The position numbers and the translations under genes are program-made. From contig NZ_JAKIHL010000001.1 of assembly GCF_021608135.1 (NCBI RefSeq), forward strand, positions 321,744-353,743: a stretch of DNA of 32,000 nt. Direction: 5' to 3'. Shown here one piece after another: positions 1,189-23,910 of the stretch. Origin of the DNA: Microaerobacter geothermalis. Its GTDB lineage: Bacteria > Bacillota > Bacilli > DSM-22679. Within the stretch, counting starts at the first letter, position 1. The number at the start of each line of letters is the position of its first letter. The notes below the pieces were generated by a model. The model saw only the letters and a list, made by a program, of their open reading frames with translations. It was not told the origin of the DNA and ran no database searches.

Positions 1189-1216
1189 ATTACTCTCTCC
1201 TCCCCTCCATAGATGC

Positions 1217-1402
1217 GGGACTAAAGATTTACACGCCCGTTAATCGAATTCGTCATAGAAGTGATATAAGTTGGCTTCGAGGCTAAAGAACGGTGCCCTC
1301 AAAAACACTTGGGTATTTCAACGATGGCGTCAGTTTGAGGGATAATTCCCGTTCTTTAGTCGCTCTGCTAAGGACGAAATTAAAGGCTGTCGTTAGTTCA
1401 GC
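1217..1402 (-). repeat. Copy A of a palindromic MITE-like intergenic repeat (inverted relative to copies B and C; distal arm degenerate with a deletion)
   Basis: GGGACTAAAGATTTACACGCCCG... at 1217. The core 1290-1356 (GAACGGTGCCCTCAAAAACACTTGGGTATTTCAACGATGGCGTCAGTTTGAGGGATAATTCCCGTTC) is the reverse complement of the copy B core at about 15121-15186, with few mismatches. The far arm (GGCTGTCGTTAGTTCAGC) matches the GGAACTAAAG...GGACAGCC arm but lacks about 13 nt. Confidence 0.7.
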
Positions 1403-1579
1403 TCATATCCTTTATCCGATGGTTAACTACCACATAGACTCTCACTTAATACTGAAATCGATCCTAACCCTAACTTAGCGGATTTCAGGAAAAAGAGCAA
1501 CAAGGATTATTTTCGGATACAAAATCGAAGATTTTCAGATAAAATAGATATGAACCAAAAAACAGGGTGAGGGGATTAT

Positions 1580-3409
1580 GTGATGACAGGAATCATAAAA
1601 AAAGAAGAAGGTTCTGCCTTAGTGTTGGTTCTCTTTCTAGTGGCTTTGCTAACTGTGTTTACCACACCTTTACTTCTCTCCACCTATGAAGGCTATCGTA
1701 ATACTTTGAAAACGGAACAAAGTGAACAAGCCCAGCAGTTGGCGGAAGCAGGAATAAATATGACTTTGTCTTATTTTAAAGAAAAATATGATCCCTTTAA
1801 TCCTATGCAAACATTGCTTGACGCTATCTCTTATGCCGATTCCGTGTCTGAACAGGAGCTAGGCTTTTCATTGGGAGATATTGAAGTAGCCATTGATACT
1901 GGAGTGAAAGAGATACGTTCTACTGGTCGGGTAAAGGATGAGGAAATCACTATAACGTTGAGTTATAACCCGCCCTTTCCACCGAATCTGGGGATATTTT
2001 CTTATCCCCTGGTTTTTGGAGATGTAAAAAATATATCAGATCTGGAAAGCTTTAAAGATGATGATGGAGTTCCTATTACCGAAGAACAAATTTTAGAATA
2101 TTATGCTGATTTTGAGAATGATTTCAACATTCTTGTTTCTCAGCTCCCAACAGGAGATGATATTGTCTATTCACAGGATTGGCCTGCCGGTTCACAGCTT
2201 CCGGAAGGATTATCCAGTTCGCTGGAACTCACCCTTTCCCCGGACAATACGCCTGACCCTGTTGCAGAACCGGAGAAATTTATCGATAATAACGGGGTTC
2301 TTACTTTGCTGGCAAAAACAGTGGAAATTGATACCGGAAATAACTATGGGAGTTCCTGGACTATCCCTTATCCTATTATTGCCACTGAATCTATAAAGAT
2401 AAATACAGATTTTAACAACGAAAAAGATCAATTAACCATTCAAGGATCACTCACTTCAATTGGATCATTTGAAATTAAAGATAAGTCAACATCCATTACG
2501 ATAGAAGGAAACGTACTTAGTTCTGGGGATATTAAGATAGGCAAAGAGGTTAAAGACTTAAGAATTGACGGTTTTTTGGTCAGCCGAAATGGTGATATGG
2601 TAATGAATCAAAAATTGGAGAAATTAAATGTGCTTGGGGATGTCATGGCATTGAAGAAGATCAGTGTTGGACAGGATTCAAAAATAATCAATATCGACGG
2701 GAAAATAGCCAGTGTGAACGACATGATTGATTTTAACCAAAAAATTGAGGATTTGCTCATTGAAGAAGATGTGATTGCTTATAAAAAAGTAAATATAGGA
2801 CAGGATTCATCGGACATTACAATAAATGGAAATCTCATCAGTGAAACCGATATGGTGGATATTCATTCAAAAATTGATGGCTTAACCATAGGAAAGAACG
2901 TGGTGGCGGAGAAAAAAATAAATATAGGTCAGGACGGTGGAAATTTTCAATTTAACGGAAATCTCATCAGTCAGTCAGGGGAAATCGATCTTAACCAAAA
3001 ATTAGAAAACGTTGTGATTGAAGGAGCCTTGGTTGCCGGTAATAAAGTGAATTTTGGTCAGGATATTCAACAGCTCACCATTAATGGGTCAGTGGCCAGT
3101 CTGAATAATTCAGTTGATTTTAATCAAAAATCCGTGGATATTAACATTAATGGAGATATCCTGGCTAAGAAAGAAATTACTTTTGACAAGAATTTGGAGC
3201 AGATAAGGATATTAGGCCGAGCCGTTTCATTAGAAAGCGTATCTTTCAGTCAAAACATTTCTGACTTTTCTCTGTGGGGAATCGCAGCCATGAATGAAAT
3301 TTCGGGAAATGACAGGTCGACGATTGTTTTAGATCTTGCAGAGGCTGCAGCAGCAGGAGGTTCAGGGGGTTCCAGCGAATTGAGTATTATCGGTTGGAAC
3401 ATTCAATGA
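1580..3409 (+). CDS. PilX-N-like (GspK-like, no Glu+5) pilus-associated protein with a C-terminal beta-helix/solenoid repeat domain; candidate tip-located minor pilin or adhesin
   Basis: 609-aa ORF with GTG 1580 or ATG 1583 after RBS GGTGAGGGG. N-terminus KKEEGSALVLVLFLVALLTVFTTPLL followed by AQQLAEAG resembles the PilX N-terminal domain (E.GSAL + hydrophobic helix, no Glu at +5). It sits first in the plus-strand pil operon, directly upstream of pilB. The C-terminal half is built of about 43-aa repeats. Confidence 0.65.
   Translation: MMTGIIKKEEGSALVLVLFLVALLTVFTTPLLLSTYEGYRNTLKTEQSEQAQQLAEAGINMTLSYFKEKYDPFNPMQTLLDAISYADSVSEQELGFSLGDIEVAIDTGVKEIRSTGRVKDEEITITLSYNPPFPPNLGIFSYPLVFGDVKNISDLESFKDDDGVPITEEQILEYYADFENDFNILVSQLPTGDDIVYSQDWPAGSQLPEGLSSSLELTLSPDNTPDPVAEPEKFIDNNGVLTLLAKTVEIDTGNNYGSSWTIPYPIIATESIKINTDFNNEKDQLTIQGSLTSIGSFEIKDKSTSITIEGNVLSSGDIKIGKEVKDLRIDGFLVSRNGDMVMNQKLEKLNVLGDVMALKKISVGQDSKIINIDGKIASVNDMIDFNQKIEDLLIEEDVIAYKKVNIGQDSSDITINGNLISETDMVDIHSKIDGLTIGKNVVAEKKINIGQDGGNFQFNGNLISQSGEIDLNQKLENVVIEGALVAGNKVNFGQDIQQLTINGSVASLNNSVDFNQKSVDININGDILAKKEITFDKNLEQIRILGRAVSLESVSFSQNISDFSLWGIAAMNEISGNDRSTIVLDLAEAAAAGGSGGSSELSIIGWNIQ
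2606..3259 (+). repeat. In-frame tandem repeats of about 129 nt (43 aa) inside the PilX-like gene, about 5 clear units plus degenerate units upstream
   Basis: Units start at NQK/SK (aa 343, 386, 430, 472, 515). Consensus is roughly NQK(L/I)E.L.I.G(D)V.A.KK(I/V)N(I/F)GQD.....ING.(L/I)(I/A)S....(I/V)DF. Exact 15-nt match GGAAATCTCATCAGT at 2828 and 2957 (129 nt apart). The alternating hydrophobic/Gly/Asn pattern is typical of beta-helical (bactofilin-like or solenoid) folds. Confidence 0.7.
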
Positions 3410-3460
3410 TGAATTAAGAGTTAGCGGAATGATCTTCAGCGAATAAGGGAGATGTCAGTC

Positions 3461-5110
3461 ATGACCAGAAGAAGAATTGGGGATATATTAGTTGAATCGG
3501 GGATCATTACGGATCAACAGTTGAAGCAGGCTCTTCAGGAACAGAAGGGAAGCGGGATGAAGCTGGGGGATCTTTTAATAGATCGAGGATATATTACTGA
3601 ACAGCAACTCATAGAAGTATTGGAATTTCAACTGGGAATTCCCCACGTCCAACTGCATCGCCAAAAGATAGACGATAAGATCATCAATATGATTCCTGAT
3701 AAAATAGCAAAAAAACATCGGGTACTTCCGCTTCGTCTAGAAAATAATAAATTAATTATTGCCATGTCCGATCCCCTAGACTACTATGCCATTGATGATG
3801 TCCGCATGAGTACGGGCTTTCAAGTGGAACCGGTTATTGCTTCCAAGGAAGAGTTAAATAGGGCTATTAATCGGTATTACAGTTTGCAAGAAACTTTAGA
3901 CGAAGTCATGCAGACGATTCCCAAAGAAATAGAGGAAACAGAAGCGACAAATGATAATGCTCCAATTGTCAGGATGGTGAATCAGATTATTTCCCAAGCG
4001 GTAAATATGGGTGCCAGCGACATTCATTTTGATCCACAGGAAAACAGCGTGAAAATAAGATACCGGATAGACGGAATATTAAGGACGGAAAGGGACTTGC
4101 CTGCCCATATGCTGGGTGTCATAACAGCAAGGCTTAAAATATTATCCAACTTGAACATCGCCGAACGCCGTTTACCCCAGGATGGCCGGTTCGAGATGGA
4201 AGTGGATTATCGAAAAGTAGATATTCGTATTTCTACCCTTCCCACAATACATGGGGAAAAAACAGTACTTCGTATATTGGATATGGCCAATGCGATCACC
4301 AATATAGAGAAGCTGGGACTATCTCAAAACAATTTGGCCTCTTTTAGAAAAATGATTTCTTCGGCTTATGGGATAATCCTGATTACCGGCCCCACCGGAA
4401 GCGGGAAAACCACCACCCTTTATGCAGCCCTTAGCTATTTAAATTCGGAACAGGTAAATATTATAACCGTTGAGGACCCGGTTGAGTACCAACTTCCGGG
4501 AATTAATCAGGTGCAGGTAAATACAACGACGGGACTTACCTTTGCCAGGGGACTTCGTTCTATTCTCCGTCAGGACCCCAATATTGTCATGGTCGGAGAA
4601 ATCCGGGATTTGGAAACGGCGGAAATCTCTGTTCGAGCCGCATTAACGGGCCATTTAGTATTAAGTACGTTGCATACCAACGATGCGGTCAGCACGTTAA
4701 ACCGTTTAATCGATATGGGAATTGAACCCTTTCTTGTCTCTTCATCCATTGCGGGCGTAGTGGCTCAGCGTTTGGTGCGACGTATTTGTCCCCAATGCAG
4801 GGACTCCTACCAACCCTCTTTTGAAGAACAAAATTTGCTGGAACAATATCAATTATCTGCCTCCAAATTGTATCGTGGTCAAGGATGTGGGAGTTGCAGC
4901 CAAACCGGGTACAGGGGCAGATTGGCTATCCATGAGGTGTTATCCTTGGATGAAAAGATGAGAGAGATGGTAATGACAAGGAAGTCAGATTCAGAGTACC
5001 GAAATTATGCCATGTCCATCGGCATGGTTCCAATGATCAAGGATGGTTTGATGAAGGCGGTTGAAGGATTAACCACCATTCAGGAAGTATTAAGGGTAAC
5101 CATTGAATGA
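3461..5110 (+). CDS. pilB: Type IV pilus assembly (extension) ATPase PilB, GspE family, with an N-terminal MshEN-type domain
   Basis: Walker A GPTGSGKTTT, Asp/His boxes, and tetracysteine motif CPQC...CGSC typical of PilB/GspE. N-terminal T2SSE_N-like domain. The track start ATG 3452 abuts the RBS AAGGGAG (3446-3452). In-frame ATG 3461 has about 9-nt spacing and is preferred. Confidence 0.9.
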   Translation: MTRRRIGDILVESGIITDQQLKQALQEQKGSGMKLGDLLIDRGYITEQQLIEVLEFQLGIPHVQLHRQKIDDKIINMIPDKIAKKHRVLPLRLENNKLIIAMSDPLDYYAIDDVRMSTGFQVEPVIASKEELNRAINRYYSLQETLDEVMQTIPKEIEETEATNDNAPIVRMVNQIISQAVNMGASDIHFDPQENSVKIRYRIDGILRTERDLPAHMLGVITARLKILSNLNIAERRLPQDGRFEMEVDYRKVDIRISTLPTIHGEKTVLRILDMANAITNIEKLGLSQNNLASFRKMISSAYGIILITGPTGSGKTTTLYAALSYLNSEQVNIITVEDPVEYQLPGINQVQVNTTTGLTFARGLRSILRQDPNIVMVGEIRDLETAEISVRAALTGHLVLSTLHTNDAVSTLNRLIDMGIEPFLVSSSIAGVVAQRLVRRICPQCRDSYQPSFEEQNLLEQYQLSASKLYRGQGCGSCSQTGYRGRLAIHEVLSLDEKMREMVMTRKSDSEYRNYAMSIGMVPMIKDGLMKAVEGLTTIQEVLRVTIE

Positions 5111-5123
5111 GGAGGAATCGAAA

Positions 5124-6161
5124 TTGGAAATTGAGCAGTTACTCCGTCTTGCCCATGAGCAGGGGGCTTCAGATTTGCACATTACGGTAGGTTCACCGCC
5201 TATTCTGAGAATTCATGGCCAATTAAAACCACTTCCTGGAGAGAAGCTAAAACCAAATGAAACGGCAGAAATAGCTAGACAGTTGATGACACAAGAACAA
5301 GATGAGCGATTCCGGGAAAAGGGTGAAGCAGATTTTTCCTATGGCATCCCTCAAGTTTCCCGTTTTAGAATTAATGTATACCGCCAAAGGGGTTGTGTCA
5401 GTTTAGCCATTCGGACCATCAACTCAAAGGTTCCCAGTATGGAGCAGTTGGGTCTACCTCCAATTGCCCGTGATTTTGCTGAAAAACCTCAGGGATTATT
5501 TTTGGTTACCGGACCAACCGGCAGCGGTAAATCTACGACATTGGCATCGATGATTGACTATATCAATCGTACGATGTATAAACATATCATTACCTTAGAA
5601 GATCCCATTGAATATTTGCATCTTCATCAGCGCTGTATTATAGACCAAAGGGAAGTGGGGCAGGATACGTTATCCTTTGCCAATGGCTTGCGTGCAGCCT
5701 TAAGACAGGACCCTGATGTTATTTTGGTCGGGGAGATGAGGGATCTGGAAACCATCGCCACTGCTATCAGTGCCGCCGAAACGGGACATCTGGTGTTTGC
5801 CACTTTACATACCTCTGATGCTCCTCAAACCATAGACAGAATCATTGATGTCTTTCCTCCGGCCCAGCAACAACAGGTTCGTATTCAATTGGCTGCGGTT
5901 TTACTGGGAGTAATGTCCCAACGGTTGATTCCTACGGCGGACGGAAACGGAAGAATGGCAGCCATTGAAGTACTGGTCAATACTCCAGCTGTAGCCAATC
6001 TGATCCGTTCAGAAAAGGTGCATCAAATAAAATCCATTATGCAGACAGGGATTCAGCAGGGAATGATTACGATGGAGCAATCGCTAAAACAGTTAATTCG
6101 TTCAGGACATATTACGGAATCAATGGCTAGGCAATACTCTGTCAACTTTGGTGATTTTTAA
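5124..6161 (+). CDS. pilT: Twitching-motility (retraction) ATPase PilT
   Basis: About 345 aa, Walker A GPTGSGKSTT, PilT-type motif AVANLIRSEKVHQI (AIRNLIRE-like). No N-terminal GspE extension. The track start TTG 5103 overlaps pilB. In-frame TTG 5124 lies 8 nt after a strong RBS GAGGAGG (5109-5115). It gives an N-terminus (MEIEQLLRLAHEQGASDLH) of the length I recall for PilT proteins. Confidence 0.88.
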   Translation: MEIEQLLRLAHEQGASDLHITVGSPPILRIHGQLKPLPGEKLKPNETAEIARQLMTQEQDERFREKGEADFSYGIPQVSRFRINVYRQRGCVSLAIRTINSKVPSMEQLGLPPIARDFAEKPQGLFLVTGPTGSGKSTTLASMIDYINRTMYKHIITLEDPIEYLHLHQRCIIDQREVGQDTLSFANGLRAALRQDPDVILVGEMRDLETIATAISAAETGHLVFATLHTSDAPQTIDRIIDVFPPAQQQQVRIQLAAVLLGVMSQRLIPTADGNGRMAAIEVLVNTPAVANLIRSEKVHQIKSIMQTGIQQGMITMEQSLKQLIRSGHITESMARQYSVNFGDF

Positions 6162-6191
6162 TTTTCTTCTGACCATATAGGAGGTGAAGGG

Positions 6192-7400
6192 ATGCCTGTC
6201 TTTCAATACAAAGCCACTTCCCGAACGGGACAGAAAAAAAAGGGGATGATTGAAACCAATAATCTTCAAGATGCATACCAACGGTTGAGGGAACAGGGAT
6301 TGTATGTCTCTTCCATTGCTCCTTATAAAGAATCCGTATGGAAAAAAGAGATAGAACTAGGAGGGAACAAGGTAAAATCCCAGCACTTTGTCGTGTTTTG
6401 CCGTCAATTTGCCACCTTGATCCGCGCGGGAATCGGAGTGGTAGATGCCGTAAAGGTGCTAAGCGAACAAACGGAGAGTAAGGTTTTAAAAAAGACCTTG
6501 GAAAGTGTGCTTGCGGAGATTCGTACAGGAACTCAGCTGTCTGCCGCTTGCATGGAACACCCTAAGGTCTTTTCTTCCATTTTTATCAATATGGTCCGGG
6601 CAGGGGAAGCCAGTGGGAACCTGGATGATGTGTTGGAAAAGCTGGCGTCCTTTTTTGAGAAAGAGCATGGGACAAGGGAAAAAATCAAATCGGCTTTAAC
6701 CTATCCCATTACAGTATCGATCATTGCAGTATTGGTTACAGGATTCCTTATGTGGAAGGTGGTTCCCCAGTTTGTGAGTACATTTGAAGGACTGGGGATT
6801 CAGTTGCCGCTGGTAACCCGGATCGTGATGGGAATCAGCAACAGCGTCATTGGATATTGGTATTTGTATCTTGCATTTCCCTTCTTCATCTTCTTTCTCA
6901 TCAAATGGTACGGGAAAACCGATAGCGGTAGGTATCGGTTGGATTACTTAAAATTGAAGATGCCTATTTTTGGAAAATTACTTCAAAAAACAGCAATGGC
7001 CCGTTTTTCAAGAACCTTTAGTTCCTTGTTTGCCGCTGCCGTGCCGATGTTACAAATTCTAAACATTGTTTCCAATGTGGTCGGAAATGAGGTGATCACC
7101 AGAACCATTGAAAAATCGAAAGAACATCTGCGAAGCGGGCAATCCCTAACCGGACCATTGAAAGAGAATTGGGTATTTCCTCCCATGGTGGTGCAAATGA
7201 TGGCAGTAGGGGAACAAACCGGAACATTAGACAGCATCCTGGAAAAAGTGGCGGATTTTTATGAGGCGGAAGTGGATGCGATGGCTGATCGGTTAAAGTC
7301 ACTGCTGGAGCCTTTGCTCATTGTGGTGATGGCCGGGATTGTCGGGATGATTGTATTGGCTATATTGCTTCCCACCTTTACGCTGTATAGCAACTTATAA
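6192..7400 (+). CDS. pilC: Type IV pilus inner-membrane platform protein PilC (GspF family)
   Basis: 402 aa with duplicated GspF-type domain architecture and three hydrophobic segments. RBS AGGAGGTG upstream. Position follows pilB-pilT. Confidence 0.88.
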   Translation: MPVFQYKATSRTGQKKKGMIETNNLQDAYQRLREQGLYVSSIAPYKESVWKKEIELGGNKVKSQHFVVFCRQFATLIRAGIGVVDAVKVLSEQTESKVLKKTLESVLAEIRTGTQLSAACMEHPKVFSSIFINMVRAGEASGNLDDVLEKLASFFEKEHGTREKIKSALTYPITVSIIAVLVTGFLMWKVVPQFVSTFEGLGIQLPLVTRIVMGISNSVIGYWYLYLAFPFFIFFLIKWYGKTDSGRYRLDYLKLKMPIFGKLLQKTAMARFSRTFSSLFAAAVPMLQILNIVSNVVGNEVITRTIEKSKEHLRSGQSLTGPLKENWVFPPMVVQMMAVGEQTGTLDSILEKVADFYEAEVDAMADRLKSLLEPLLIVVMAGIVGMIVLAILLPTFTLYSNL

Positions 7401-7448
7401 GAGGATGTTCAAAAAGATTAATATTATATGAAAATTATTTGAAAGGTG

Positions 7449-7477
7449 TATACAAGTTTCGGTAAAGTCTTTATAAT
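7449..7477 (+). promoter_or_regulatory. Candidate sigma-A promoter for the major pilin gene (TATACA-17 nt-TATAAT)
   Basis: -35-like TATACA 7449-7454, 17-nt spacer, consensus -10 TATAAT 7472-7477, in an AT-rich 148-bp spacer. A 5' UTR hairpin AGTACTAA(9 nt)TTAGTACT at 7506-7530 precedes the SD AAGGGAAGGGGG. Confidence 0.3.
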
Positions 7478-7548
7478 ATAGGTGTCATAACCAAAATAGG
7501 ACAAAAGTACTAATAGAGTGCTTTAGTACTAAGGGAAGGGGGAATTTT

Positions 7549-7962
7549 ATGAATTTTTTACGTAAAAAGGTAAATTTTTTAAGGAATCAGCGTGGGGTAA
7601 CTTTAATTGAATTACTGGCGGTCGTAGTGATTCTAGGCATTATTGCAGCAATTGCAGCTCCAAATATTATTGATAGTTTTGATGATGCAAAAGCGAATAC
7701 GGATGCTACCACAGAAGAGATTATAATAAATGCAGCAAAAAGATTAATAATGGACAATGATGGATTTAACGCTGTTGATGATGATCCTAATTTTGATGAA
7801 GATGCGGATAATAATCCTGCCAACACGCTAGTTATTAGTATGAACACATTGGTTACTAATGGCTATCTTGACGAGGTTCCAGAAAGTCAAGTAGATGGTA
7901 CAGCATATTCCAATATTACAGTTGTAAGAAGTGGTAATCAATATACTTATACTGTAAACTAA
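7549..7962 (+). CDS. pilA: Major type IV pilin (PilA-like prepilin)
   Basis: 137 aa. The leader MNFLRKKVNFLRNQRG|VTLIELLAVVVILGIIAAIAAPN has Gly-1, Glu+5 and a hydrophobic alpha1-N helix. It has its own promoter region and is followed by a terminator hairpin. Small acidic globular part. Triple stop TAATAATAA. Confidence 0.85.
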   Translation: MNFLRKKVNFLRNQRGVTLIELLAVVVILGIIAAIAAPNIIDSFDDAKANTDATTEEIIINAAKRLIMDNDGFNAVDDDPNFDEDADNNPANTLVISMNTLVTNGYLDEVPESQVDGTAYSNITVVRSGNQYTYTVN

Positions 7963-7966
7963 TAAT

Positions 7967-7995
7967 AAGGCAACCTCTTGGTTGCCTTTCTTTTT
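7967..7995 (+). terminator. Intrinsic terminator or attenuator between pilA and pilD
   Basis: AAGGCAACC (7967-7975), loop TCTT, GGTTGCCTT (7980-7988), then TCTTTTT. Perfect 9-bp GC-rich stem plus T-tract immediately after the pilin stop codons. Confidence 0.75.
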
Positions 7996-8007
7996 AAGGA
8001 GCATACT

Positions 8008-8766
8008 ATGGAAATACTGATAATATTATTCATCATCTTCTCCCTGTTTATCGGGTCGTTTCTTAACGTGGTGGCCCTGAGAATTCCAAAAGGGGAATCC
8101 ATTGTTTACCCGCCGTCTCACTGTCCTTCATGTAATCAGCGACTTAAACCTTGGGATTTGTTTCCCGTGTTCAGCTATATCTTTTTAAAGGGAAAATGCC
8201 GGTATTGCCGCAGGCCGATCTCTGTTCTTTATCCCCTTGGCGAAATATGGACGGCGGTTTTGTTTTTTTTCGCATTTGACCGCTTTGGATTTGACAAGGA
8301 ATTATGGATTGCCCTTCCCTTTTTGGCTATTCTTTCGGTTATTACCGTTAGTGATTTAAAATATCAGATCATTTCCAATAAAGTGGTCTATTCCGGGATG
8401 ATTTTATTTCTAATTCTAAGATTCTTTATCCGCCCTTTACCATACATAGACTATATTCTCGGGTTTTTCATTGCCGGGGGGTTGCTCTTTTTGATTGCAG
8501 TGATAACCCGGGGCGGAATGGGCGGAGGAGATATCAAATTGATGGCCATGATCGGATTGGTTATGGGCTGGAAAATGGCTTTGCTATCCTTCTTCATCGC
8601 TTCTTTTATCGGCGGAATGATTGGAGTTATGCTGTTGTTAACCGGAACCGTCAAGCGAAAAGAACCCATTCCCTTCGGCCCTTTTATTGCCATTGGAACA
8701 GCAGTTACCTATTTGTGGGGGGAAGCACTTCTTGATTATTATTTCAATATTTATTCACTATTTTAA
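8008..8766 (+). CDS. pilD: Prepilin peptidase / N-methyltransferase PilD (peptidase A24)
   Basis: Polytopic membrane protein. N-terminal Cys pairs CPSC...CRYC and the catalytic-Asp region GGGDIKLMAMIG typical of A24 prepilin peptidases. The track start TTG 7978 lies inside the pilA terminator stem. ATG 8008 follows RBS AAGGAG (7996-8001) and is preferred. Confidence 0.88.
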   Translation: MEILIILFIIFSLFIGSFLNVVALRIPKGESIVYPPSHCPSCNQRLKPWDLFPVFSYIFLKGKCRYCRRPISVLYPLGEIWTAVLFFFAFDRFGFDKELWIALPFLAILSVITVSDLKYQIISNKVVYSGMILFLILRFFIRPLPYIDYILGFFIAGGLLFLIAVITRGGMGGGDIKLMAMIGLVMGWKMALLSFFIASFIGGMIGVMLLLTGTVKRKEPIPFGPFIAIGTAVTYLWGEALLDYYFNIYSLF

Positions 8767-8829
8767 TATGAATCTTGGCAATCATTCATTTATCATATGT
8801 TACACTTAACTATTAGTAGATATAGAAGC

Positions 8830-8870
8830 GGACTAAAGATTTACACGTTCGCGAGTCGAGTTCTAAGCGA
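8830..8870 (-). repeat. Copy D: collapsed or solo arm of the palindromic repeat family
   Basis: GGACTAAAGATTTACACGTTCGCGAGTCGAGTTC matches the copy A left arm and the reverse complement of the copy C right arm. The following TAAGCGA matches the sequence after GAGTTCGTAC in the copy C left arm, so the element appears to have lost its whole interior. Confidence 0.55.
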
Positions 8871-8903
8871 AATATTGATACTATTTTTAGCAGGGAGAGA
8901 ATT

Positions 8904-11274: not shown

Positions 11275-11295
11275 GGGGAAAACCCCTCATTTTTG
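11272..11295 (+). terminator. Intrinsic terminator ending the pil operon
   Basis: TGAGGGG-AAAA-CCCCTCA followed by TTTTT. The stem includes the pilO stop codon TGA 11272-11274. Confidence 0.8.
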
Positions 11296-11362
11296 TTCTA
11301 TCAATCTCTCATCTCTCATATAAAAATAGTAAAGGGAATTGTCCAAAGGAGAGATGATAGAC

Positions 11363-13180: not shown

Positions 13181-13237
13181 TGGGCATCACGGAAATATTG
13201 GGAAGGAATGGGTAAGTCCTCTAAGGAGGAGAAACAA

Positions 13238-13936: not shown

Positions 13937-14008
13937 GATTCATTTTTTTCGGTATAATAAAAGGAGTGTAAATCAGGCTTGTCCTTTATGGAAGGGAGAT
14001 ACAACAAG

Positions 14009-15046: not shown

Positions 15047-15068
15047 ACTTACTTTGTGGGAATCAGAC

Positions 15069-15320
15069 GGAACTAAAGAATTCACTAAGGACAGCCTTCG
15101 AGTTCGTACTTAAGCATTAAATCTAACGAACGGGAATTCGCCCTCAAACTGACTGCACCTTTGAAATACCCAGATGTTTTTGAGGGCGCCGTTCATTAGA
15201 CTTAATGCGGATCTTGATTACTTCCTGCACGAACTCGACTAGCGGACGTGTGAATCTTTGATATGAAAATACATGTTCATATCAATTTGTGACCCTTCGG
15301 GTCATGGAGGTTTAGTTCCG
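15069..15320 (+). repeat. Copy B of the palindromic MITE-like repeat, carrying an extra ~51-nt insertion in its right arm
   Basis: The left arm GGAACTAAAGAATTCACTAAGGACAGCCTTCGAGTTCGTACT differs from the copy C left arm at 2 of 42 positions. Conserved core CCCTCAAACTGAC...TTGAAATACCCAGATGTTTTTGAGGG. The right arm ...GAACTCGACTAGCGGACGTGTGAATCTTT is interrupted at 15260-15310, then ends TTTAGTTCC. It fills the mreB-mreC spacer. Confidence 0.75.
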
Positions 15321-15342
15321 CATATAAAAGGGTGTTTTGCCG

Positions 15343-16727: not shown

Positions 16728-16739
16728 GGGGCTATAGTA

Positions 16740-18719
16740 ATGGGCAAAAAGACGGAACAGGTAAATTCTCATATACCTCGCCGATTAAACATCATATACA
16801 TCATAGTCTTTTTTCTCTTTACGATTCTTGTTTTAAGACTTGCTTTTATTCAATTGGTACAGGGAGAAGAGTATTTAAGAACATCGGAAGAAAACAGTAC
16901 CAAAGTGATCCCCATCCCAGCTCCCCGGGGCTGGATTTTAGATAAAAATGGAGAAGTCCTGGTCAATAATAAGCCTGTATATACGGTTACCTTTCGTGAA
17001 GATGAACGAATGAACATAAACAGGAATGAAGTTGCCCAACAGCTTGCTCTCTATTTGGAAGATAAAGACGTTGAAGAGATGATCGCGGAAAACGATAGAG
17101 AGGGGATCATTCGTGAATTAAAAAGGTATGGTATGACTGAGGAAGATATTTCTTTAGACATGACCATTGAAGAACTGGGTAATTTGTTGGAAACAAAAAA
17201 AATACTTTACGCTATGGTTTCTGGTTATCGCTATATGCCCCATTCTATCAAGGCAGATCTCAGCTGGAGAGAGGTTTCATTAATATCTGAACACAGGGAT
17301 GAACTTCCCGGTGTGAATGTGGTTGTTGAACCCATGAGGCAGTACAAAAGAGGTGCATTTGCTACCCACCTTCTTGGATATACCAAGCCCATTGATGTTT
17401 ACAGCAAAGATTATTATGAAGCAAGGGGCTACCGTGTAGACGAGAAGGTGGGGGTTTCCGGCCTTGAAAAATCATATGAAACCCAGCTTCGTGGAAAAGA
17501 AGGAAAAATGGAAGCTAAAATCAACAGCCAGGCCAAAATTATTGAAACCAAAGTGATAGAAGCTCCACAGCGTGGCAATGATTTGGTTCTTACGATTGAT
17601 GCCAATTTCCAGGAGAAAGTAGAGGAGATATTGGCCGATACGGTACAGGAGGTAAAGACAAGAGAAAGAAATCCCCTCCCCGAGGTGGAAGAGGCCATTG
17701 CAGTGGCAATGGACCCAAAGACAGGAGCCATTTTGGCGATGGCCAACTTTCCGGACTATGATCTAAACATACAGAACAGCCCTGATTTTGGAAAGCTGTA
17801 CAATCAGTATGTAAAAGGAAAAGAAAGCAATAAGGCTATACGAGGGGGATTTCCAGCCGCATCTACCGTAAAGCCCTTATCGGTGATGTTGGGACTGCAG
17901 GAAAATCTCATTGATGAAAATACAGAGATTTTTGACCCCGGCTGGTATCAGGTAGGGGATATGAAGAAGAAAAACTGGAAGCTCTCTGGTCATGGCAGGG
18001 TGAATCCAAGAAAGGCCCTTCAGGTATCAAATAATACGTATATGTACTTTATTGCCATGGAACTGGCCAACTGGCCTGCTTCCCGTTCTGAATATAGGCA
18101 GAAATTTAGCGTAATAGATTATTACTTTAGCCAATTTGGTTTAGGAGTAAAGACTGGAATTGATTTGGAAGAGGAATTAACTGGATGGCGTTCCACTACA
18201 AAAAATTTGGGGAATTTGGCCGATGCCTTAATTGGGCAGTACAATGCCTATACTCCCATGCAGTTGACTCAATATGTAAGTACCATCGCCAATGGCGGGT
18301 ACCGGATGAGACCTTATTTGGTTGATGAAATCCGTAGAGCGACTACGCTGCCGGGAGAAAAGGGAGAAGTGTTGTTTAAGAGGGAACCGGAAGTGTTAAA
18401 CAGAGTGGATATTGACAGCAAATATATAAAATTGGCTCAAGAGGGAATGCGGATGGTTACCCAGCCTGGTGGAACCGCTTATTATACCTTTCTAGGGTTT
18501 CCCGTTTCTGTTGCCGCAAAAACCGGGACGGCTCAGACTGGGGTTCCAGGGATGAACAACTCGGTTATCATCGCTTATGCTCCGTTTGAGGACCCTGAAA
18601 TTGCCCTTGCCGTTGTTGTTCCCAACGGAGGAGGAGGTTCAGATGCCAGCGGTTTAATTGCCAGAAGGATTCTGGAAGCCTATTTCGGCATCAATCAACC
18701 ATCCGTAAATAATCCATAG
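16740..18719 (+). CDS. mrdA: Class B penicillin-binding protein (PBP2-type elongation transpeptidase)
   Basis: 659 aa with an N-terminal TM anchor, a PBP dimerisation domain, and transpeptidase motifs STVK (SxxK), SNN (SxN) and KTGTA (KTG). Located directly after mreD, as in many Firmicutes outside B. subtilis. Confidence 0.88.
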   Translation: MGKKTEQVNSHIPRRLNIIYIIVFFLFTILVLRLAFIQLVQGEEYLRTSEENSTKVIPIPAPRGWILDKNGEVLVNNKPVYTVTFREDERMNINRNEVAQQLALYLEDKDVEEMIAENDREGIIRELKRYGMTEEDISLDMTIEELGNLLETKKILYAMVSGYRYMPHSIKADLSWREVSLISEHRDELPGVNVVVEPMRQYKRGAFATHLLGYTKPIDVYSKDYYEARGYRVDEKVGVSGLEKSYETQLRGKEGKMEAKINSQAKIIETKVIEAPQRGNDLVLTIDANFQEKVEEILADTVQEVKTRERNPLPEVEEAIAVAMDPKTGAILAMANFPDYDLNIQNSPDFGKLYNQYVKGKESNKAIRGGFPAASTVKPLSVMLGLQENLIDENTEIFDPGWYQVGDMKKKNWKLSGHGRVNPRKALQVSNNTYMYFIAMELANWPASRSEYRQKFSVIDYYFSQFGLGVKTGIDLEEELTGWRSTTKNLGNLADALIGQYNAYTPMQLTQYVSTIANGGYRMRPYLVDEIRRATTLPGEKGEVLFKREPEVLNRVDIDSKYIKLAQEGMRMVTQPGGTAYYTFLGFPVSVAAKTGTAQTGVPGMNNSVIIAYAPFEDPEIALAVVVPNGGGGSDASGLIARRILEAYFGINQPSVNNP

Positions 18720-18727
18720 CAGTGCTG

Positions 18728-18908
18728 ATCCTTTCTGTCTTCGCTCTGCTTGAATTCCTGCTGAGGAGCATTTCTGTCCGGGAAGGCTTTCTGGTTCGGC
18801 GCATCGGGAACATCTGGGCAACTCAATGTGGTGAGACTACCCGATGCTTTTTCCTCACCAGAAATCCTTACCTGGGCAGGAATTCAAAATCGCTCAGACA
18901 GAAAGGAT
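18728..18908. repeat. ~180-nt imperfect palindrome (long hairpin element), unrelated in sequence to repeat family A-D
   Basis: Pairing segments: 18728-18740 ATCCTTTCTGTCT with 18896-18908 AGACAGAAAGGAT (13 bp). 18750-18761 TTGAATTCCTGC with 18876-18887 GCAGGAATTCAA (12 bp). AAGGCTTTCTGGT with the complement of ACCAGAAATCCTT (1 mismatch). 18801-18808 GCATCGGG with 18840-18847 CCCGATGC (8 bp). Confidence 0.7.
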
Positions 18909-19207
18909 AAGTCCCTTCAGTAGAGTAACTCAAGGGTGAAAGTTGTATCCTTGTGACGCAGACTGGCCCTTCTAACCTAATGGAAATCGTTTTGAGAGGA
19001 AAAAACTCCGCGACTGTCTCCCTCTTTGAATGATCCAAGATGTTTTGCGGGGTCCGATCAAAACGATTGAAGTGGACAGAGGAATGCTTCGATGTTGAAG
19101 GGAGTCAAGGCAAGGAGCAAAGATACACTTCTAGACTTATTTCAAACATCTAGCAGGAAAATGGTGATTCCTGCCGAATTCATCTTATGGTGGGGTGATC
19201 TTTGGAC

Positions 19208-19891
19208 ATGATGATAACCAAGCATAAAGTGATGATTAAGGGAACCAAAGATGGCCTGATTTTTATGTTTGATGATAGATGTTCCTTTGAAGATCTGATA
19301 GAAGAACTGGCGACCAAAATGGAAAGCAGTTATCAGCAGATTTTAACGGGACCCCTTATTCATGTCACGATTAAATTGGGAAATCGATATATTACGGAAG
19401 AACAAGAAGAAGAGATTCGAAGAATCATAGGAATTCAAAAAAATTTAGTCGTTAAACAAGTTGATTCCAATGTGATTAGCAAAGAGGAAGCTTTATTGGA
19501 AAAATTAGCATCCCAGATGAAAATTGTCACCCGTACGGTACGATCCGGGCAAGTTCTTCAGCATGAGGGGGATATTTTATTGCTGGCCGATGTAAATCCG
19601 GGTGGATGTATCATTAGTACGGGGAATGTTTTTGTGATGGGAAAATTAATGGGTATGGCCCATGCCGGGTACCCCAAAAATATCCATGCGGTTATTGGAG
19701 CCTCATATCTGCAGCCTACTCAATTAAGGATTGGACATGTGATCGGAAATCCACTGGAGAACTTGAATGAGCCTGCCATTGAGATGGGGTTTGCGTATAT
19801 TCAGGATGGGAAATTAACCTTCGAAAAAATTAGGCATCTTCACAAAATAAAACCTGAGCTATATGTACCATTATTTCCTTTATCCAACTGA
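19208..19891 (+). CDS. minC: Septum site-determining protein MinC
   Basis: N-terminus (V)MIKGTKDGLIFMFDD.CSFEDL and C-terminal beta-helix region RSGQVLQHEGDILLLADVNPGG.IISTGNVFVMG.L.G.AHAG typical of MinC. ATG 19208 preferred over track TTG 19202. Confidence 0.9.
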   Translation: MMITKHKVMIKGTKDGLIFMFDDRCSFEDLIEELATKMESSYQQILTGPLIHVTIKLGNRYITEEQEEEIRRIIGIQKNLVVKQVDSNVISKEEALLEKLASQMKIVTRTVRSGQVLQHEGDILLLADVNPGGCIISTGNVFVMGKLMGMAHAGYPKNIHAVIGASYLQPTQLRIGHVIGNPLENLNEPAIEMGFAYIQDGKLTFEKIRHLHKIKPELYVPLFPLSN

Positions 19892-19912
19892 TATAGAGGA
19901 GGGGAGTTAAGA

Positions 19913-20707
19913 TTGGGAGAGGCGATCGTTGTAACCTCCGGTAAAGGAGGAGTTGGCAAAACAACCACATCAGCTAATATAGGAACAGCACTAGCCTTAT
20001 CTGAAAAAAAAGTATGCCTGATCGATACGGATATTGGTTTAAGAAATTTGGATGTTGTGATGGGACTGGAGAACCGCATTATTTTTGATTTGGTTGATGT
20101 GGTGGAGGGAACTTGTGAGATAAAACAAGCATTGGTGAAGGATAAACGTTTTGATGCACTATATCTTCTTCCTGCCGCTCAGACAAAGGATAAAAGTGCG
20201 GTCAACCCCGAACAGATGGAGAAACTGGTTAATCAATTAAAGATTGATTTTGATTATATTATTATCGATTGTCCTGCGGGAATTGAGCAGGGTTTCAAAA
20301 ATGCCGTGGCAGGAGCAGATCAGGCCATCGTTGTTACGACACCAGAAAATTCTGCTGTAAGGGATGCAGACCGGATCATTGGTTTATTGGAAAAGGAAGA
20401 GATTGCACCACCGAAGCTAGTCATTAACCGGATAAAACCCCACATGGTAAAACGAGGGGAAATGCTGGATGTAGATGAGATTGTTCAGGTCCTAGGAATC
20501 GACTTGCTGGGAATTGTTCCTGATGACGAACAGGTGATTAAATCAACCAACTCCGGAGAACCGACGGTACTAAATCCCCAAAGCAGAGCAGCATTGGCCT
20601 ATCGCAATATTGGACGGAGAATACTGGGGGATGCAGTTCCCCTAATGGTTCTCGATGATCAAAAGGGAATGTTTTCTAAAATGAAAAAATGGTTGGGATT
20701 ATCTTAA
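19913..20707 (+). CDS. minD: Septum site-determining ATPase MinD
   Basis: Deviant Walker A SGKGGVGKTT and a C-terminal amphipathic membrane-targeting helix (GMFSKMKKWLGL). TTG start after RBS GAGGAGGGGAG. Confidence 0.93.
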   Translation: MGEAIVVTSGKGGVGKTTTSANIGTALALSEKKVCLIDTDIGLRNLDVVMGLENRIIFDLVDVVEGTCEIKQALVKDKRFDALYLLPAAQTKDKSAVNPEQMEKLVNQLKIDFDYIIIDCPAGIEQGFKNAVAGADQAIVVTTPENSAVRDADRIIGLLEKEEIAPPKLVINRIKPHMVKRGEMLDVDEIVQVLGIDLLGIVPDDEQVIKSTNSGEPTVLNPQSRAALAYRNIGRRILGDAVPLMVLDDQKGMFSKMKKWLGLS

Positions 20708-20733
20708 GGGGCCAATGTAGAGGCCCCTTTTTA
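20707..20733 (+). terminator. Intrinsic terminator after minD
   Basis: AGGGGCC (20707-20713), loop, GGCCCCT (20722-20728), followed by TTTTT. Confidence 0.75.
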
Positions 20734-20812
20734 CCAATCTCCAAGCAATCGTGATTATTGTTTGAATTAAGTTATACTAATAGCAGGTAGGTAGTTAGGG
20801 TAGGTGGCACAC

Positions 20813-21949
20813 ATGGGGATCGAAAAAAGATGGATTCGTGAATTTGACTGGATGATTATTCTTGTGATATTGGGTTTGTTTGCTTTTAGTTATATTGGCA
20901 TTTCTGGGGCAAATCCGCAGTATAATCAGCAAAATAAGCAGGTGATTTGGTATTTACTCGGTTTTGCCGTGTTGTTTGTGATCCTCTTGTTTGATTATCA
21001 TTTCATAGGTACCTATTCCTATATTTTTTACGGGATAGGGGTCATTCTTCTAATTGCCATTTTGATTAAGGGAACCATTACAAATGGAGCTCAAAGTTGG
21101 TTCGATTTTGGATATTTTAAGGTACAGCCATCGGAATTCATGAAGATTTTCATCATCTTGACCTTAGCTCGATATTTCTCCCAAAAGGAAGAAAAGGAAG
21201 AAAAAATAGAATCCTTTTATCAGCTGATTCCTGCGTTTTTGTTGTTGGGAGTCCCTCTCGGATTAATTTTGCTCCAACCTGATTTGGGGACGGCTTTGGT
21301 GTTTGTGGGAATATTTTTGAGTATTCTAATCGCTGTAGGAATTCCTCTGCGCCATTTTATTTATATGGGACTAATTATCGCTTCAGGTATCGCTGTCCTT
21401 GCTTATTTCTACAATTTTAAGCCTGAACTCTTTTTTTCTTTCATTCAGGAATACCAGTGGAACCGTCTGGTTTCCTTTATCAATCCTGATGGAGCAAATG
21501 CGCTGACCACCGGTTATCAATTAAAACAATCCCTTATTGCCATTGGTTCTGGTCAATTAACAGGCAAGGGGCTGTTTGCTGGAACACAGGCGAAATATAA
21601 TTGGGTGCCCGAAGGGGAGACTGATTTTATTTTTACGGTAATTGCCGAGGAATTAGGATTTATAGGGGCCAGCTTACTCCTTCTCCTCTTTTTCTTGTTA
21701 ATCTATCGGATGGTCCGGATTTCCATTGAGGCAAAGGATTCCTTTGGCAGCTATGTGATTGTCGGCGTTATTGGCATGCTGGTATTTCAGATTTATGAAA
21801 ATATAGGAATGACCATCCGCCTAATGCCGATTACCGGAATTCCCCTTCCTTTTATCAGTTATGGGGGAAGTTCTCTGATAACCAATTTTGTAGCCGTTGG
21901 TTTAGTTCTAAGTATTGGGATGAGAAGAAAAAAGCTGATGTTCTCATAA
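20813..21949 (+). CDS. rodA: SEDS-family peptidoglycan glycosyltransferase RodA (FtsW/RodA/SpoVE family)
   Basis: Ten-TM-type hydrophobic profile, with QPSEFMK, LQPDLGTA and PEGETDFIF motifs typical of SEDS proteins. ATG 20813 (5 nt after AGGTGG) preferred over track GTG 20804. Assigned to RodA rather than FtsW or SpoVE only because it adjoins mre/min genes. Confidence 0.8.
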   Translation: MGIEKRWIREFDWMIILVILGLFAFSYIGISGANPQYNQQNKQVIWYLLGFAVLFVILLFDYHFIGTYSYIFYGIGVILLIAILIKGTITNGAQSWFDFGYFKVQPSEFMKIFIILTLARYFSQKEEKEEKIESFYQLIPAFLLLGVPLGLILLQPDLGTALVFVGIFLSILIAVGIPLRHFIYMGLIIASGIAVLAYFYNFKPELFFSFIQEYQWNRLVSFINPDGANALTTGYQLKQSLIAIGSGQLTGKGLFAGTQAKYNWVPEGETDFIFTVIAEELGFIGASLLLLLFFLLIYRMVRISIEAKDSFGSYVIVGVIGMLVFQIYENIGMTIRLMPITGIPLPFISYGGSSLITNFVAVGLVLSIGMRRKKLMFS

Positions 21950-21960
21950 TTTATTCCTTA

Positions 21961-21989
21961 TCATATTCCCGCCGGACAAGTCATATAGT
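21961..21989 (+). promoter_or_regulatory. Candidate sigma-E-type (mother-cell) promoter upstream of spoIVFA
   Basis: TCATATT (21961-21967), 14-nt spacer, CATATAGT (21982-21989). This closely matches the recalled sigma-E consensus (-35 ATATT, -10 CATACA.T). B. subtilis spoIVF is sigma-E dependent. Confidence 0.4.
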
Positions 21990-22023
21990 GAAGGTAAAGA
22001 CCAATACGGTGGGGTGTTGATGA

Positions 22024-22806
22024 ATGGATGATTTTCGATCTTTTCGGGAACGAGAAGAAAGATATAAGGTGTTAAAGGAGAAGATCAGACAAAGGAAACT
22101 TGACAGAATGACGAGTGAATGGGAGCAGCCCACGTATAGTTCATACTTTCCATCAACGGTGCGTCAGCGTCATTCTTTCAGAAAAGAACACAGAACTACC
22201 CAAAAAGAAGTTTTGGCCATTCGTCTTTTTATTTCCATTATTTTGCTTGGAGCCACGTTTCTCCTTTTTCGGATGGAAGGGCCTTTCTTTAAGACTTCAC
22301 AGGATGCTGTCCGGGAAGTGATGGAAAGGGAGTTTAATTTTAAAGGTGTAGTAAAATGGTATGAACAGAAAATCGGTACCATCCCTACATTTTTCCCCAA
22401 TTTATCTAATCGTGTCATGCTGGAGGAAGACCGAGATGTTCCAGTTTCATATGCTGCGCCTGTTCTAAATGGTGCAGTCATCTCACCTTTTGTAAAAGAC
22501 GGGAAGGGAGTTCTGGTTGGAACAGATAAGGGAGAAATGGTCACCTCCATTGACGAAGGTTGGATTACCTATATTGGTCCGAAGGATTCTCTAGGACAAG
22601 TTGTCATTGTTCAACATCGTAAGGGAATAGAATCTTGGTATGGTTATTTGGGAGAATTATACGTCCAGGTGAATGATTGGGTGAAAAAAGGGGCGGTATT
22701 GGGAAAAGTTCGTCCTGATGGAAAAGGGGAGAATGGCTATTTTTATTTTTCCATGAAGAAAAATGGCCAATTTGTAGATCCCATGGAAGTGATTCCATTT
22801 GAGTAG
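22024..22806 (+). CDS. spoIVFA: Stage IV sporulation protein FA-like (membrane protein with LytM/M23-like C-terminal domain)
   Basis: 260 aa with a charged N-terminal region, one TM helix (LAIRLFISIILLGATFLLF) and a C-terminal M23/LytM-like beta domain (GVLVGTDKGEMVTSIDEGWITYIG...VVIVQH..G.ESWYGYLGE..V.VNDWVKKGAVLGKV). Immediately upstream of, and overlapping, spoIVFB as in B. subtilis. Confidence 0.75.
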   Translation: MDDFRSFREREERYKVLKEKIRQRKLDRMTSEWEQPTYSSYFPSTVRQRHSFRKEHRTTQKEVLAIRLFISIILLGATFLLFRMEGPFFKTSQDAVREVMEREFNFKGVVKWYEQKIGTIPTFFPNLSNRVMLEEDRDVPVSYAAPVLNGAVISPFVKDGKGVLVGTDKGEMVTSIDEGWITYIGPKDSLGQVVIVQHRKGIESWYGYLGELYVQVNDWVKKGAVLGKVRPDGKGENGYFYFSMKKNGQFVDPMEVIPFE

Positions 22807-22825
22807 GCCTTGGAGACTAGGCTCC

Positions 22826-23635
22826 ATGAAAGTTACGGTTCATCCCCTTTTTTGGGTGGTGATTGGTTTTGCTTTGCTTTTCGGAAGATTTCTGGAGATT
22901 ATTTCTTTATTTACCATTGTTGTGATCCATGAGTTAGGACATGTATATACAGCAAAGGCCTTTGGGTGGCGGGTGACAGAGATATCCCTTCTTCCTTTTG
23001 GAGGGGTTGCCAAAGTAGACGAGTTGGGAAACACCTTGATTCGTGAAGAATGTATGGTTGCTTTGGCAGGTCCCTTTATCAATGGGTTGATGATGGCACT
23101 TTCCGTCCTGATGTATAGATTGGGATGGTGGAACAGAGAATGGGCGGATTTTTTCTTTATAGGAAACGCTTACATCGCTCTTTTTAACCTATTGCCCATT
23201 TGGCCATTGGATGGAAGCAAAGTGCTGAAAGCCCTCATCAGCTATGCATGTCCCTACAGAAAAGTGATTCGCTTAATCATTTGGGTCAGTAGTTTCGGCA
23301 TCCTTTTTTTGCTTTGGACATCAGTATCCCAACCAGACAAACATTTGAATGTGCTGTTTATTAATTTTTTCCTCGCATACTCTACATTTATTTTCTACAG
23401 GCACAGGGAATATCATTTTTTTCGTTTTTTAATTGCCAAATATGATGCAATTCAATTGGCAAAGGAAAGCTGGCCCGTTAAATTCATATATATAAAAGGC
23501 AATGAACCGGTTAAGGATTTGTTAAAAAGACTATTTAGGGAAAAGTATCACCTGTTTTCCCAAATGGATGAAAAGAAGAAGAATAAAGAATTTATTGGGG
23601 AAGAAGTCCTTTTAAATGCCTATTTTAATCGATAG
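22826..23635 (+). CDS. spoIVFB: Site-2 (M50) intramembrane metalloprotease SpoIVFB (pro-sigma-K processing enzyme)
   Basis: HELGH (HExxH) within a TM segment and NLLPIWPLDG (NxxPxxxLDG) motifs. The N-terminus MKVTVHPLFWVV aligns with the recalled B. subtilis SpoIVFB start (..IHVHPFLW..). ATG 22826 preferred over track TTG 22799. Confidence 0.88.
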   Translation: MKVTVHPLFWVVIGFALLFGRFLEIISLFTIVVIHELGHVYTAKAFGWRVTEISLLPFGGVAKVDELGNTLIREECMVALAGPFINGLMMALSVLMYRLGWWNREWADFFFIGNAYIALFNLLPIWPLDGSKVLKALISYACPYRKVIRLIIWVSSFGILFLLWTSVSQPDKHLNVLFINFFLAYSTFIFYRHREYHFFRFLIAKYDAIQLAKESWPVKFIYIKGNEPVKDLLKRLFREKYHLFSQMDEKKKNKEFIGEEVLLNAYFNR

Positions 23636-23699
23636 CAGATTCTTGGAGGCAATTAGCTATCGGCCACTTAATGACTATCCCGTAATCGTCTATATGGAT

Positions 23700-23892
23700 G
23701 GGACTAAAGAATTTACTAAGGACAGCCTTCGAGTTCGTACTAAGCGAAGGGGCTAAAGAACGGAAATAGCCGTCAAACTGACTACATCGTTGAAATACTC
23801 AGATGTTTTTGATGGTTCCGTTTTTATCCCCGAAGCGGACATTAACCACATCTGGGCCGAACTCGACAAGCGGACGTGTAAACTTTAGTTCC
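23700..23892 (+). repeat. Copy C of the palindromic MITE-like repeat (most compact full copy)
   Basis: Left arm GGGACTAAAGAATTTACTAAGGACAGCCTTCGAGTTCGTACT, core GCCGTCAAACTGACTACATCGTTGAAATACTCAGATGTTTTTGATGG, right arm GAACTCGACAAGCGGACGTGTAAACTTTAGTTCC. The arms are mutually complementary with mismatches. GGAT occurs on both flanks (23696-23699 and 23893-23896). Confidence 0.78.
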
Positions 23893-23910
23893 GGATCTAT
23901 AGTCGAGTTA

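Follow-up and report, generated by a model that had tools for sequence, protein, structure and literature searches.

A family of ~200-bp palindromic MITE-like repeats in intergenic spacers of pilus, cell-shape and division genes of Microaerobacter geothermalis

A repeat family in the intergenic spacers

The DNA analysed here (referred to below as the window) is a stretch of 32,000 nucleotides from Microaerobacter geothermalis (NCBI RefSeq assembly GCF_021608135.1, contig NZ_JAKIHL010000001.1, positions 321,744 to 353,743 of the forward strand). It carries a type IV pilus gene cluster followed by genes for cell shape, division and sporulation, among them mreB, mreC, the PBP2 gene, minC, spoIVFB and rng. 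A first reading of this stretch, made from the letters alone and without database searches, had described in its intergenic regions a family of imperfect palindromes resembling MITEs (transposable elements that are miniature and carry inverted repeats), with three full copies (A, B and C) and one remnant (R). The copies were said to lie in the divergent pilus promoter region (A), between pilD and pilM (R), between mreB and mreC (B) and between spoIVFB and rng (C), and this gene context, as first stated, agreed with the Pfam labels of the called genes. The positions of all the features are collected in Table 1.

The three copies and the remnant were recovered from the sequence, by repeat detection and by BLAST, at the places where they had been reported. 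Repeat detection returned a direct repeat pair (15066-15254 and 23697-23882), showed that 1223-1397 is an inverted repeat of both, and paired 8830-8863 with the right arm. BLAST comparisons of A, B and C gave pairwise identities of 75-77% over 176-194 nt, with E-values of 1e-30 to 1e-35, and an identity of 81-90% over 29-44 nt for R. B and C have left arms that agree at all but 2 of 42 positions, and the core stem reads CCGTCA/TGATGG in C and CCCTCA/TGAGGG in B, both exactly as the sequence-only reading had it. The core pattern AAACTGAC-N7-TTGAAATAC-N5-TGTTTT occurred three times in the window as against 0.00 times in shuffles, and the same counts were obtained with a degenerate pattern of the right arm.

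The total of three full copies and a remnant turned out to be incomplete. An nhmmer profile made of A, B and C gave a weak match at 19012-19078, in the 482-nt PBP2-minC spacer. A covariance model of the 95-nt core hairpin, run unfiltered over the window and 25 kb of flanking contigs, scored A, B and C at 102-110 bits and added two copies, E with its core at 18980-19073(+) (40 bits, E-value ~1e-8) and D with its core at 18780-18872(-) (26 bits, E-value ~7e-5); the top unrelated hairpin in the same scan reached 14 bits. Full-length alignments demonstrated that D and E are complete rods of ~197-198 nt with the layout of A, B and C. They stand head-to-head in the PBP2-minC spacer and are only ~50-60% identical to A, B and C. 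The 5' start of D, TGAAGGGACT, resembles TGGATGGGACT of C, and the loop 10-mer CCCAGATGTT is common to D and B. D and E are either old copies or members of a sister subfamily. The whole set comprises five full copies, of 197-260 bp, and one fragment within 23 kb, in both orientations and with arms and core in the same order throughout. The repeat family is therefore confirmed and larger than first reported, and its local density (six in 23 kb) is mildly unusual.

No conserved open reading frame (ORF) was present in any of the copies, as had been noticed at first: the sole shared frame, of 22 aa and common to A and B, is frameshifted in C. The ORFs that lie mostly inside copies are of 46 aa or less and non-conserved, and an 87-aa minus-strand ORF (23799-24062) merely overlaps the right end of C. 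When six-frame peptides of A, B and C were compared with a protein database, as a test for copies miscalled as genes, no match was obtained. Rfam 15 gave no family at gathering score for any copy, and a search with copy C at E-values up to 10 returned only miRNA, snoRNA and plastid chance matches far below thresholds. A sigma-70-like promoter or intrinsic terminator consensus was absent from the common part of the elements; terminator-like calls were limited to a weak one in the core of B and two, also weak, in the insert private to B. This insert consists of two local hairpins, GATATGAA...TTCATATC and TGACCC-TTCG-GGGTCA, of which the second has the loop TTCG. An extended -10-like sequence, TGATACAAT, that the consensus scan did not call lies at 23911-23919 (+), after copy C and before the start of rng; judged from this sequence, C may belong to the 3' tail of the spoIVFB transcript rather than to the leader of rng.

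Table 1. Copies of the repeat family, their core hairpins and the adjoining hexamers (positions of the window)
Feature	Position	Strand	Remarks
Copy A, full length, 219 bp	1214..1432	-	just upstream of the ribosome-binding site of pilin-like gene 817-1188(-)
Ends of copy A			left inverted repeat degenerate, ~12 nt extra past terminal TG; right end ...CTTTAGTCCCGCA
Direct repeat TCTATG, right end of A	1208..1213	-	target-site duplication, first of two
Direct repeat TCTATG, left end of A	1433..1438	-	target-site duplication, second of two
Core hairpin of A	1274..1368	-	contains 30-mer 1310-1339, overlap of two k=31 contigs
Remnant R, right arm only (GAACTCGAC...CTTTAGTCCGCT)	8827..8866	-	between pilD and pilM
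TCTATA directly outside intact end of R	8821..8826		
Copy B, 260 bp	15063..15322	+	between mreB and mreC; flanks TGGGAA / TATAAA, no match
Insert specific to B, ~51 nt	15259..15310	+	inside right inverted repeat
Core hairpin of B	15114..15208	+	
Copy D, 197 bp	18723..18919	-	strongly diverged, near-perfect rod; adjoins PBP2 stop codon
Copy E, ~198 bp	18930..19127	+	strongly diverged; core hairpin 18980-19073
Copy C, 201 bp	23695..23895	+	between spoIVFB and rng; best-kept ends TGGATGGGACTAAAG...CTTTAGTTCCGGA
Direct repeat TCTATA, left end of C	23689..23694	+	target-site duplication
Direct repeat TCTATA, right end of C	23896..23901	+	target-site duplication
Core hairpin of C	23744..23836	+	

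Element ends, flanking hexamers and the spacers of relatives

The ends of the elements were set by lining up the flanks of the copies in element orientation. Similarity between the copies runs past the ends first proposed on both sides, and these had been drawn too short for A, B and C (Table 1). On the right side A, B, C and R all read CTTTAGTYCC-G(C/G)(A/T), which is followed by TCTATR in A, C and R; on the left side C and A read TCTAT(A/G)-TGG. The elements start with 5'-TG and finish with GCA-3' (GGA in C), and their termini form imperfect inverted repeats of ~22 nt with the pattern 5'-TG(G/C)..GGGACTAAAG...CTTTAGTCCCGCA-3'. The right end of C, TCCGGAACTAAAGTTTAC, matches its left end, TGGATGGGACTAAAGAATTTAC, when it is reverse-complemented. 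The same inverted ends were observed in A, B and R and, in a weaker form, in D and E.

Perfect 6-bp direct repeats flank two of the five full copies, A (TCTATG) and C (TCTATA). The chance of a hexamer match at fixed ends is 1/4096 per copy. The sixth base of the hexamer agrees within each copy, being G on both sides of A and A on both sides of C, and for the hexamers of A a direct reading fits at 6 of 6 positions, whereas an inverted reading does not fit. TCTATR sites are not enriched in the window (26 observed versus 28 expected). Since the paired hexamers agree where A and C differ, they have the pattern expected when a preferred target site, TCTATR, is duplicated over 6 bp, and not that of element sequence. 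It had been pointed out earlier that C is flanked by GGAT. This tetranucleotide is indeed present on both sides but it is not the target duplication, because on the left it belongs to the inverted repeat itself (TGGATGGG) and on the right it straddles the junction of the element with the true hexamer. A duplication of 3 bp beyond the hexamers, TCG in C and GAG in A, was also rejected, as it would require the boundaries of the two copies to be set differently.

The spacers that hold the elements were compared with those of relatives. The closest PBP2 homologues in the protein database are 50-53% identical and belong to Thermicanus, Brevibacillus, Calditerricola and other assemblies; at such a distance exact empty sites are unreadable, and the comparison concerns the length and content of the spacers. 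In the same gene block from two relatives (L007 and L008) the gene order is conserved. The mreB-mreC spacer has 296 nt in M. geothermalis versus 62 nt in L007 and 12 nt in L008, and the PBP2-minC spacer has 482 nt versus 133 and 18 nt. For the spoIVFB-rng spacer, of 308 nt here, the value of 49 nt comes from one relative only (L007). No element was detected in the blocks of the two relatives with the nhmmer profile, and the spacers of the window are of normal length once the elements are subtracted. All spacers of the window that are longer than 290 nt hold copies, except that at 28513-29026. The short, element-free spacers of the relatives fit insertion, and not conserved regulatory sequence, as the source of the long spacers. 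This contradicts the alternative that the sequence-only reading had set beside its own proposal, namely that the similarity is operon-specific regulatory sequence shared with distant taxa.

Further copies, folding and alternative explanations

The window is matched at 100% identity by contigs that Logan assembled from the short reads of run SRR17631839. Logan uses a de Bruijn graph with k=31 that holds each 31-mer only once (PMC12424806), and its contigs therefore break off where a 30-mer occurs in more than one context. In the apical loop of A, contigs 174 and 274 have exactly 30 nt in common (1310-1339), the 30-mer CTCAAACTGACGCCATCGTTGAAATACCCA. Contig 219 ends at 15096 in the left arm of B, contig 186 starts at 15291 at the junction of the B insert and the right end, and contig 89 starts at 23717 in the left arm of C. 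Five of the eight mapped contig ends (four distinct break sites) thus fall within elements, that is, in ~1.5% of the sequence. No exact stretch common to two copies of the window exceeds 27 nt, and no self-complementary one exceeds 13 nt, and therefore the branches in A, B and C need near-identical copies outside the window. The simplest reading of the contig breaks is that other parts of the genome hold one or more near-identical relatives of each of A, B and C, which would indicate recent activity. The contig start at 15291, within the insert of B, hints that this variant is itself repeated elsewhere. The earlier suggestion that the element is genome-wide and recently active is in this way supported indirectly, by the breaks at k=31 in all three copies, but no copy outside the window has been seen.

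The long rod-like folding that had been predicted for the elements was borne out by calculation. The RNA fold of C has an energy of -66.5 kcal/mol (z -5.3) and that of B an energy of -95.1 kcal/mol (z -5.5); folding as single-stranded DNA (ssDNA) gave z-scores of -3.3 for C, -2.2 for A and -5.7 for D. RNAalifold applied to A, B and C returned 59 pairs, seven of them with changes on both sides, for example GCATTAAATCTAAC/ATTAGACTTAATGC in B versus GCGAAGGGGCTAAAG/TTATCCCCGAAGC in C. When the core was followed through all the copies from A to E, 129 of 145 pair cells were paired and 19 of 29 pairs had double changes at an overall identity of 57-59%, a count that was taken from the covariance model's own alignment, leans to structure because this alignment is fitted to the model, and presumes that D and E are true homologues. 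Loop positions fixed across A-E are UUGA, CA and GG.AA...CCG. Taken at face value, such conservation along the whole rod could reflect the need for a hairpin or cruciform in mobilisation, selection at the level of RNA, or the derivation of the copies from palindromic masters that differed. It is mildly unusual that insertions lie in essential operons and that compensatory variation extends along the rod.

These results make it probable that the copies belong to a lineage-specific non-autonomous transposable element, a MITE of ~200 bp with imperfect inverted ends of ~22 nt and a palindromic interior. The elements have the features by which a bacterial MITE is defined in PMC3184786: they are small, contain no transposase gene, carry terminal inverted repeats and flanking direct repeats, and have a stable fold. 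The MITE-like reading has been strengthened since it was first put forward, by the TG...CA inverted termini, the 6-bp repeats on two copies, the lack of an ORF and the empty spacers of the relatives. A DDE transposase encoded elsewhere in the genome would bind both inverted ends and mobilise the element in trans, with insertion at the preferred site TCTATR and duplication of 6 bp. Copies would survive only in intergenic spacers, where the gaps inside operons (mreB-mreC, PBP2-minC and spoIVFB-rng) and the pilin leader would have grown by 200-430 nt. Most copies lie inside transcription units and are therefore probably transcribed, and their transcripts would fold into imperfect double-stranded rods of ~70-85 base pairs. 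RNase III cuts the double-stranded rods of Correia elements, and the rods described here could likewise be RNase III targets or could change mRNA stability. Effects on the expression of mreC, minC, rng or the pilin gene are possible.

Several observations weigh against the interpretation as a dispersed MITE. Matching flanking repeats were not found at B, D and E; the left end of B is 16 nt from the mreB stop codon, and we conjecture that its matching flanks may have been lost through a small deletion or by exchange with another copy. The part most conserved among A, B and C is the apical loop and not the termini, and the whole rod, not only its ends, has been kept by compensatory changes, of which a plain transposase-binding model needs none. 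The contig ends at 13597/13621 (in radC) and 23538 (near the 3' end of spoIVFB) are outside the elements, with no repeat detected there, so that not every break marks a repeat; strain variation could also branch contigs if the run were a mixed sample. Neither the 10 kb that follow the window on the right nor the 5 kb before it on the left contained a further copy, and neither an autonomous insertion sequence (IS) with the same ends nor a copy outside the window was seen in the collections searched, which include neither the source genome nor close relatives. The core pattern with flexible gaps had 0 matches in GTDB representatives, the core and left-arm patterns had 0 matches in IMG/VR viral contigs, and copy C had no match by blastn among plasmids and phages. 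Two single hits were dismissed as chance matches, one to the core pattern in a JGI metagenome and one to the right-arm pattern in IMG/VR, the latter in GC-rich coding DNA.

The compensatory changes raise the question of whether the copies are a selected structured module of RNA or ssDNA, in which the rod and its apical loop function in protein binding or processing and tune the expression of operons, whatever the way in which the module has spread. The sequence-only reading had named such a module, and we consider it rather unlikely. The hairpin is kept by compensatory changes in five of five copies in spite of their low identity, and the seven doubly changed pairs were found among A, B and C alone; the covariation that includes D and E is valid only if these are true homologues. 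Parts of the apical loop are conserved, with the motifs UUGA, CCA-R-R-UG and GGRAA...CCG retained in D and E, and the right arm of A, B and C contains an asymmetric unpaired segment of ~20 nt. Copies A, B, C and E point the same way as the genes beside them, but D and R are antisense to the genes that surround them. No consistent strand bias was detected in folding energy or G-U content, the sense strand being better in C, D and E and the antisense strand in A and B, and unpaired and paired columns of the A-E core are about equally conserved (0.59 versus 0.57). Strand asymmetry, orientation and promoter or terminator signals therefore lend the module no support, and it has no match in Rfam. 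The same spacers of the relatives are without the element, and the 6-bp flanking duplications indicate insertion and not local evolution. A combined form, in which the hairpin is under selection as a protein-binding or RNase-processing module, was spread by transposition and is kept in the mreB-mreC, PBP2-minC and spoIVFB-rng spacers, also appears unlikely. If it were true, the family would be a domesticated mobile structural element of RNA or DNA that uncouples or tunes neighbouring genes, and not mere junk.

Two further explanations concern the way in which the copies have spread. Mobility as ssDNA by a tyrosine HUH enzyme, as a REPIN with its RAYT or as a palindrome-associated element of the IS200/IS605 type and not as a cut-and-paste MITE, would agree with an element that is in its entirety one long imperfect hairpin and folds well as ssDNA. 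REPINs and REP-BIMEs are also long imperfect intergenic hairpins with compensatory changes from arm to arm, and the changes between the subfamilies described here are like those described for REP doublets. This explanation is nevertheless very unlikely. REPINs are much shorter, composed of two short REP units (~20-40 nt), and are linked to a RAYT gene, whereas the element is a single unit of ~200 bp, well above the length of a REP doublet, and neither a RAYT nor a TnpA gene is present among the called genes of the 47 kb examined. HUH-mobilised elements make no target-site duplications, and those of the IS200/IS605 type have subterminal hairpins beside a conserved cleavage tetranucleotide and no inverted repeats; A and C have perfect 6-bp direct repeats, and the TG...CA ends are true terminal inverted repeats. 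The other explanation, a purely local family that arose by duplication or gene conversion inside the 23-kb region and is not dispersed in the genome, would account for the position of all copies at 1.2-23.9 kb, with none in the 18 kb that follow or the 5 kb that come before, and for the lack of a copy in any public collection searched. It is hard to reconcile with the k=31 contigs, which break in A, B and C although these share no 30-mer mutually or internally, and with copies that occur in either orientation and in spacers unrelated to one another, where each has flanks of its own and, in A and C, a duplication of its own. We regard a purely local origin as highly improbable.

Relation to known elements, neighbouring features and significance

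Bacterial MITEs, including Correia/NEMIS of Neisseria, ERIC of enterobacteria and RUP of Streptococcus pneumoniae, have been reviewed (PMC3184786). The family described here is like them in its size class (~100-400 bp), in having no transposase gene, in its terminal inverted repeats and flanking direct repeats, in its intergenic location, often in co-transcribed spacers, and in its predicted long stable hairpin. Correia, ERIC and RUP elements duplicate TA, whereas the duplication observed here is the hexamer TCTATR, and it is by this duplication, not by sequence comparison, that the family is set apart from them. Unlike the known MITEs it has been seen, as far as searched, in one deep-branching Bacillales-like lineage.

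The bcr1 repeat of the Bacillus cereus group is ~155 bp long, has a 5-bp sequence-specific direct repeat, shows compensatory changes and is located in transcribed regions (PMC3184786). It shares with the present family a Bacillales host, the nature of a small mobile repeat, a short sequence-specific direct repeat, base changes that keep the structure, and the location in transcribed regions. By its description, however, bcr1 forms a cruciform of two independent stem-loops and duplicates 5 bp, as opposed to the single long rod and the 6 bp found here. Inverted ends of the TG...CA type together with a short duplication of fixed length are typical of the IS3, IS481 and IS21 DDE transposases, and IS481 duplicates 6 bp at NCTAGN. 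The likeness of the termini and of the short target duplications to those of IS481, IS3 and IS21 is a lead and not a test, and the element differs from them in being without a transposase gene. We conclude that the repeats make up a new family, of a kind already known, in a lineage that has been sampled poorly; as a finding it is sound, though an ordinary one.

Other features were observed in the surrounding DNA. The gene order valS-folC-...-maf-radC-mreBCD-PBP2-minCD-rodA-spoIVFA/B-rng-rplU-...-obg is conserved with Calditerricola, and the type IV pilus cluster (~0.3-12.4 kb, from pilin-like through pilMNO-like genes) is inserted here between the Mur-ligase/folC genes and maf. The ORF 1580-3409 (~608 aa), which heads the pilus operon, contains four tandem coding repeats at 2726-3193 (+), with a period of 129 nt (43 aa) and 64-70% identity; the protein that hosts them has no Pfam match on record. 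A ribosomal protein L21 leader (RF00559, 55 bits) was detected at 25260-25337 (+), upstream of rplU, as expected. A strong match to BsrG (RF01412; 122.8 bits, E-value 6e-29) was obtained at 28625-28873 (+), in the 514-nt spacer between obg and an ACT-domain gene, and within it lies a hydrophobic ORF of 26 aa, MTVFETITVMIAFGMLVAILSQKNRK, at 28689-28769 (+). From its sequence, 28625-28873 resembles the mRNA of a type I toxin of the BsrG type, situated among housekeeping genes on the chromosome of a distant Bacillales lineage.

The MITE-like elements explain the unusually long spacers in the otherwise tight cell-shape, division and pilus operons of this organism. They also explain why its short-read assembly breaks there, and annotators should mask the family. 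The finding adds to the known MITEs a family whose duplication is sequence-specific and 6 bp long, from a deep-branching, poorly sampled Bacillales-like lineage, and leaves the current understanding of such elements unchanged. The preservation of the rod by compensatory changes between old and young subfamilies is a small puzzle that the family has in common with bcr1, ERIC and REPINs. Should processing of the hairpins take place in mRNA, essential genes could be affected by the insertions that lie between mreB and mreC or upstream of rng.

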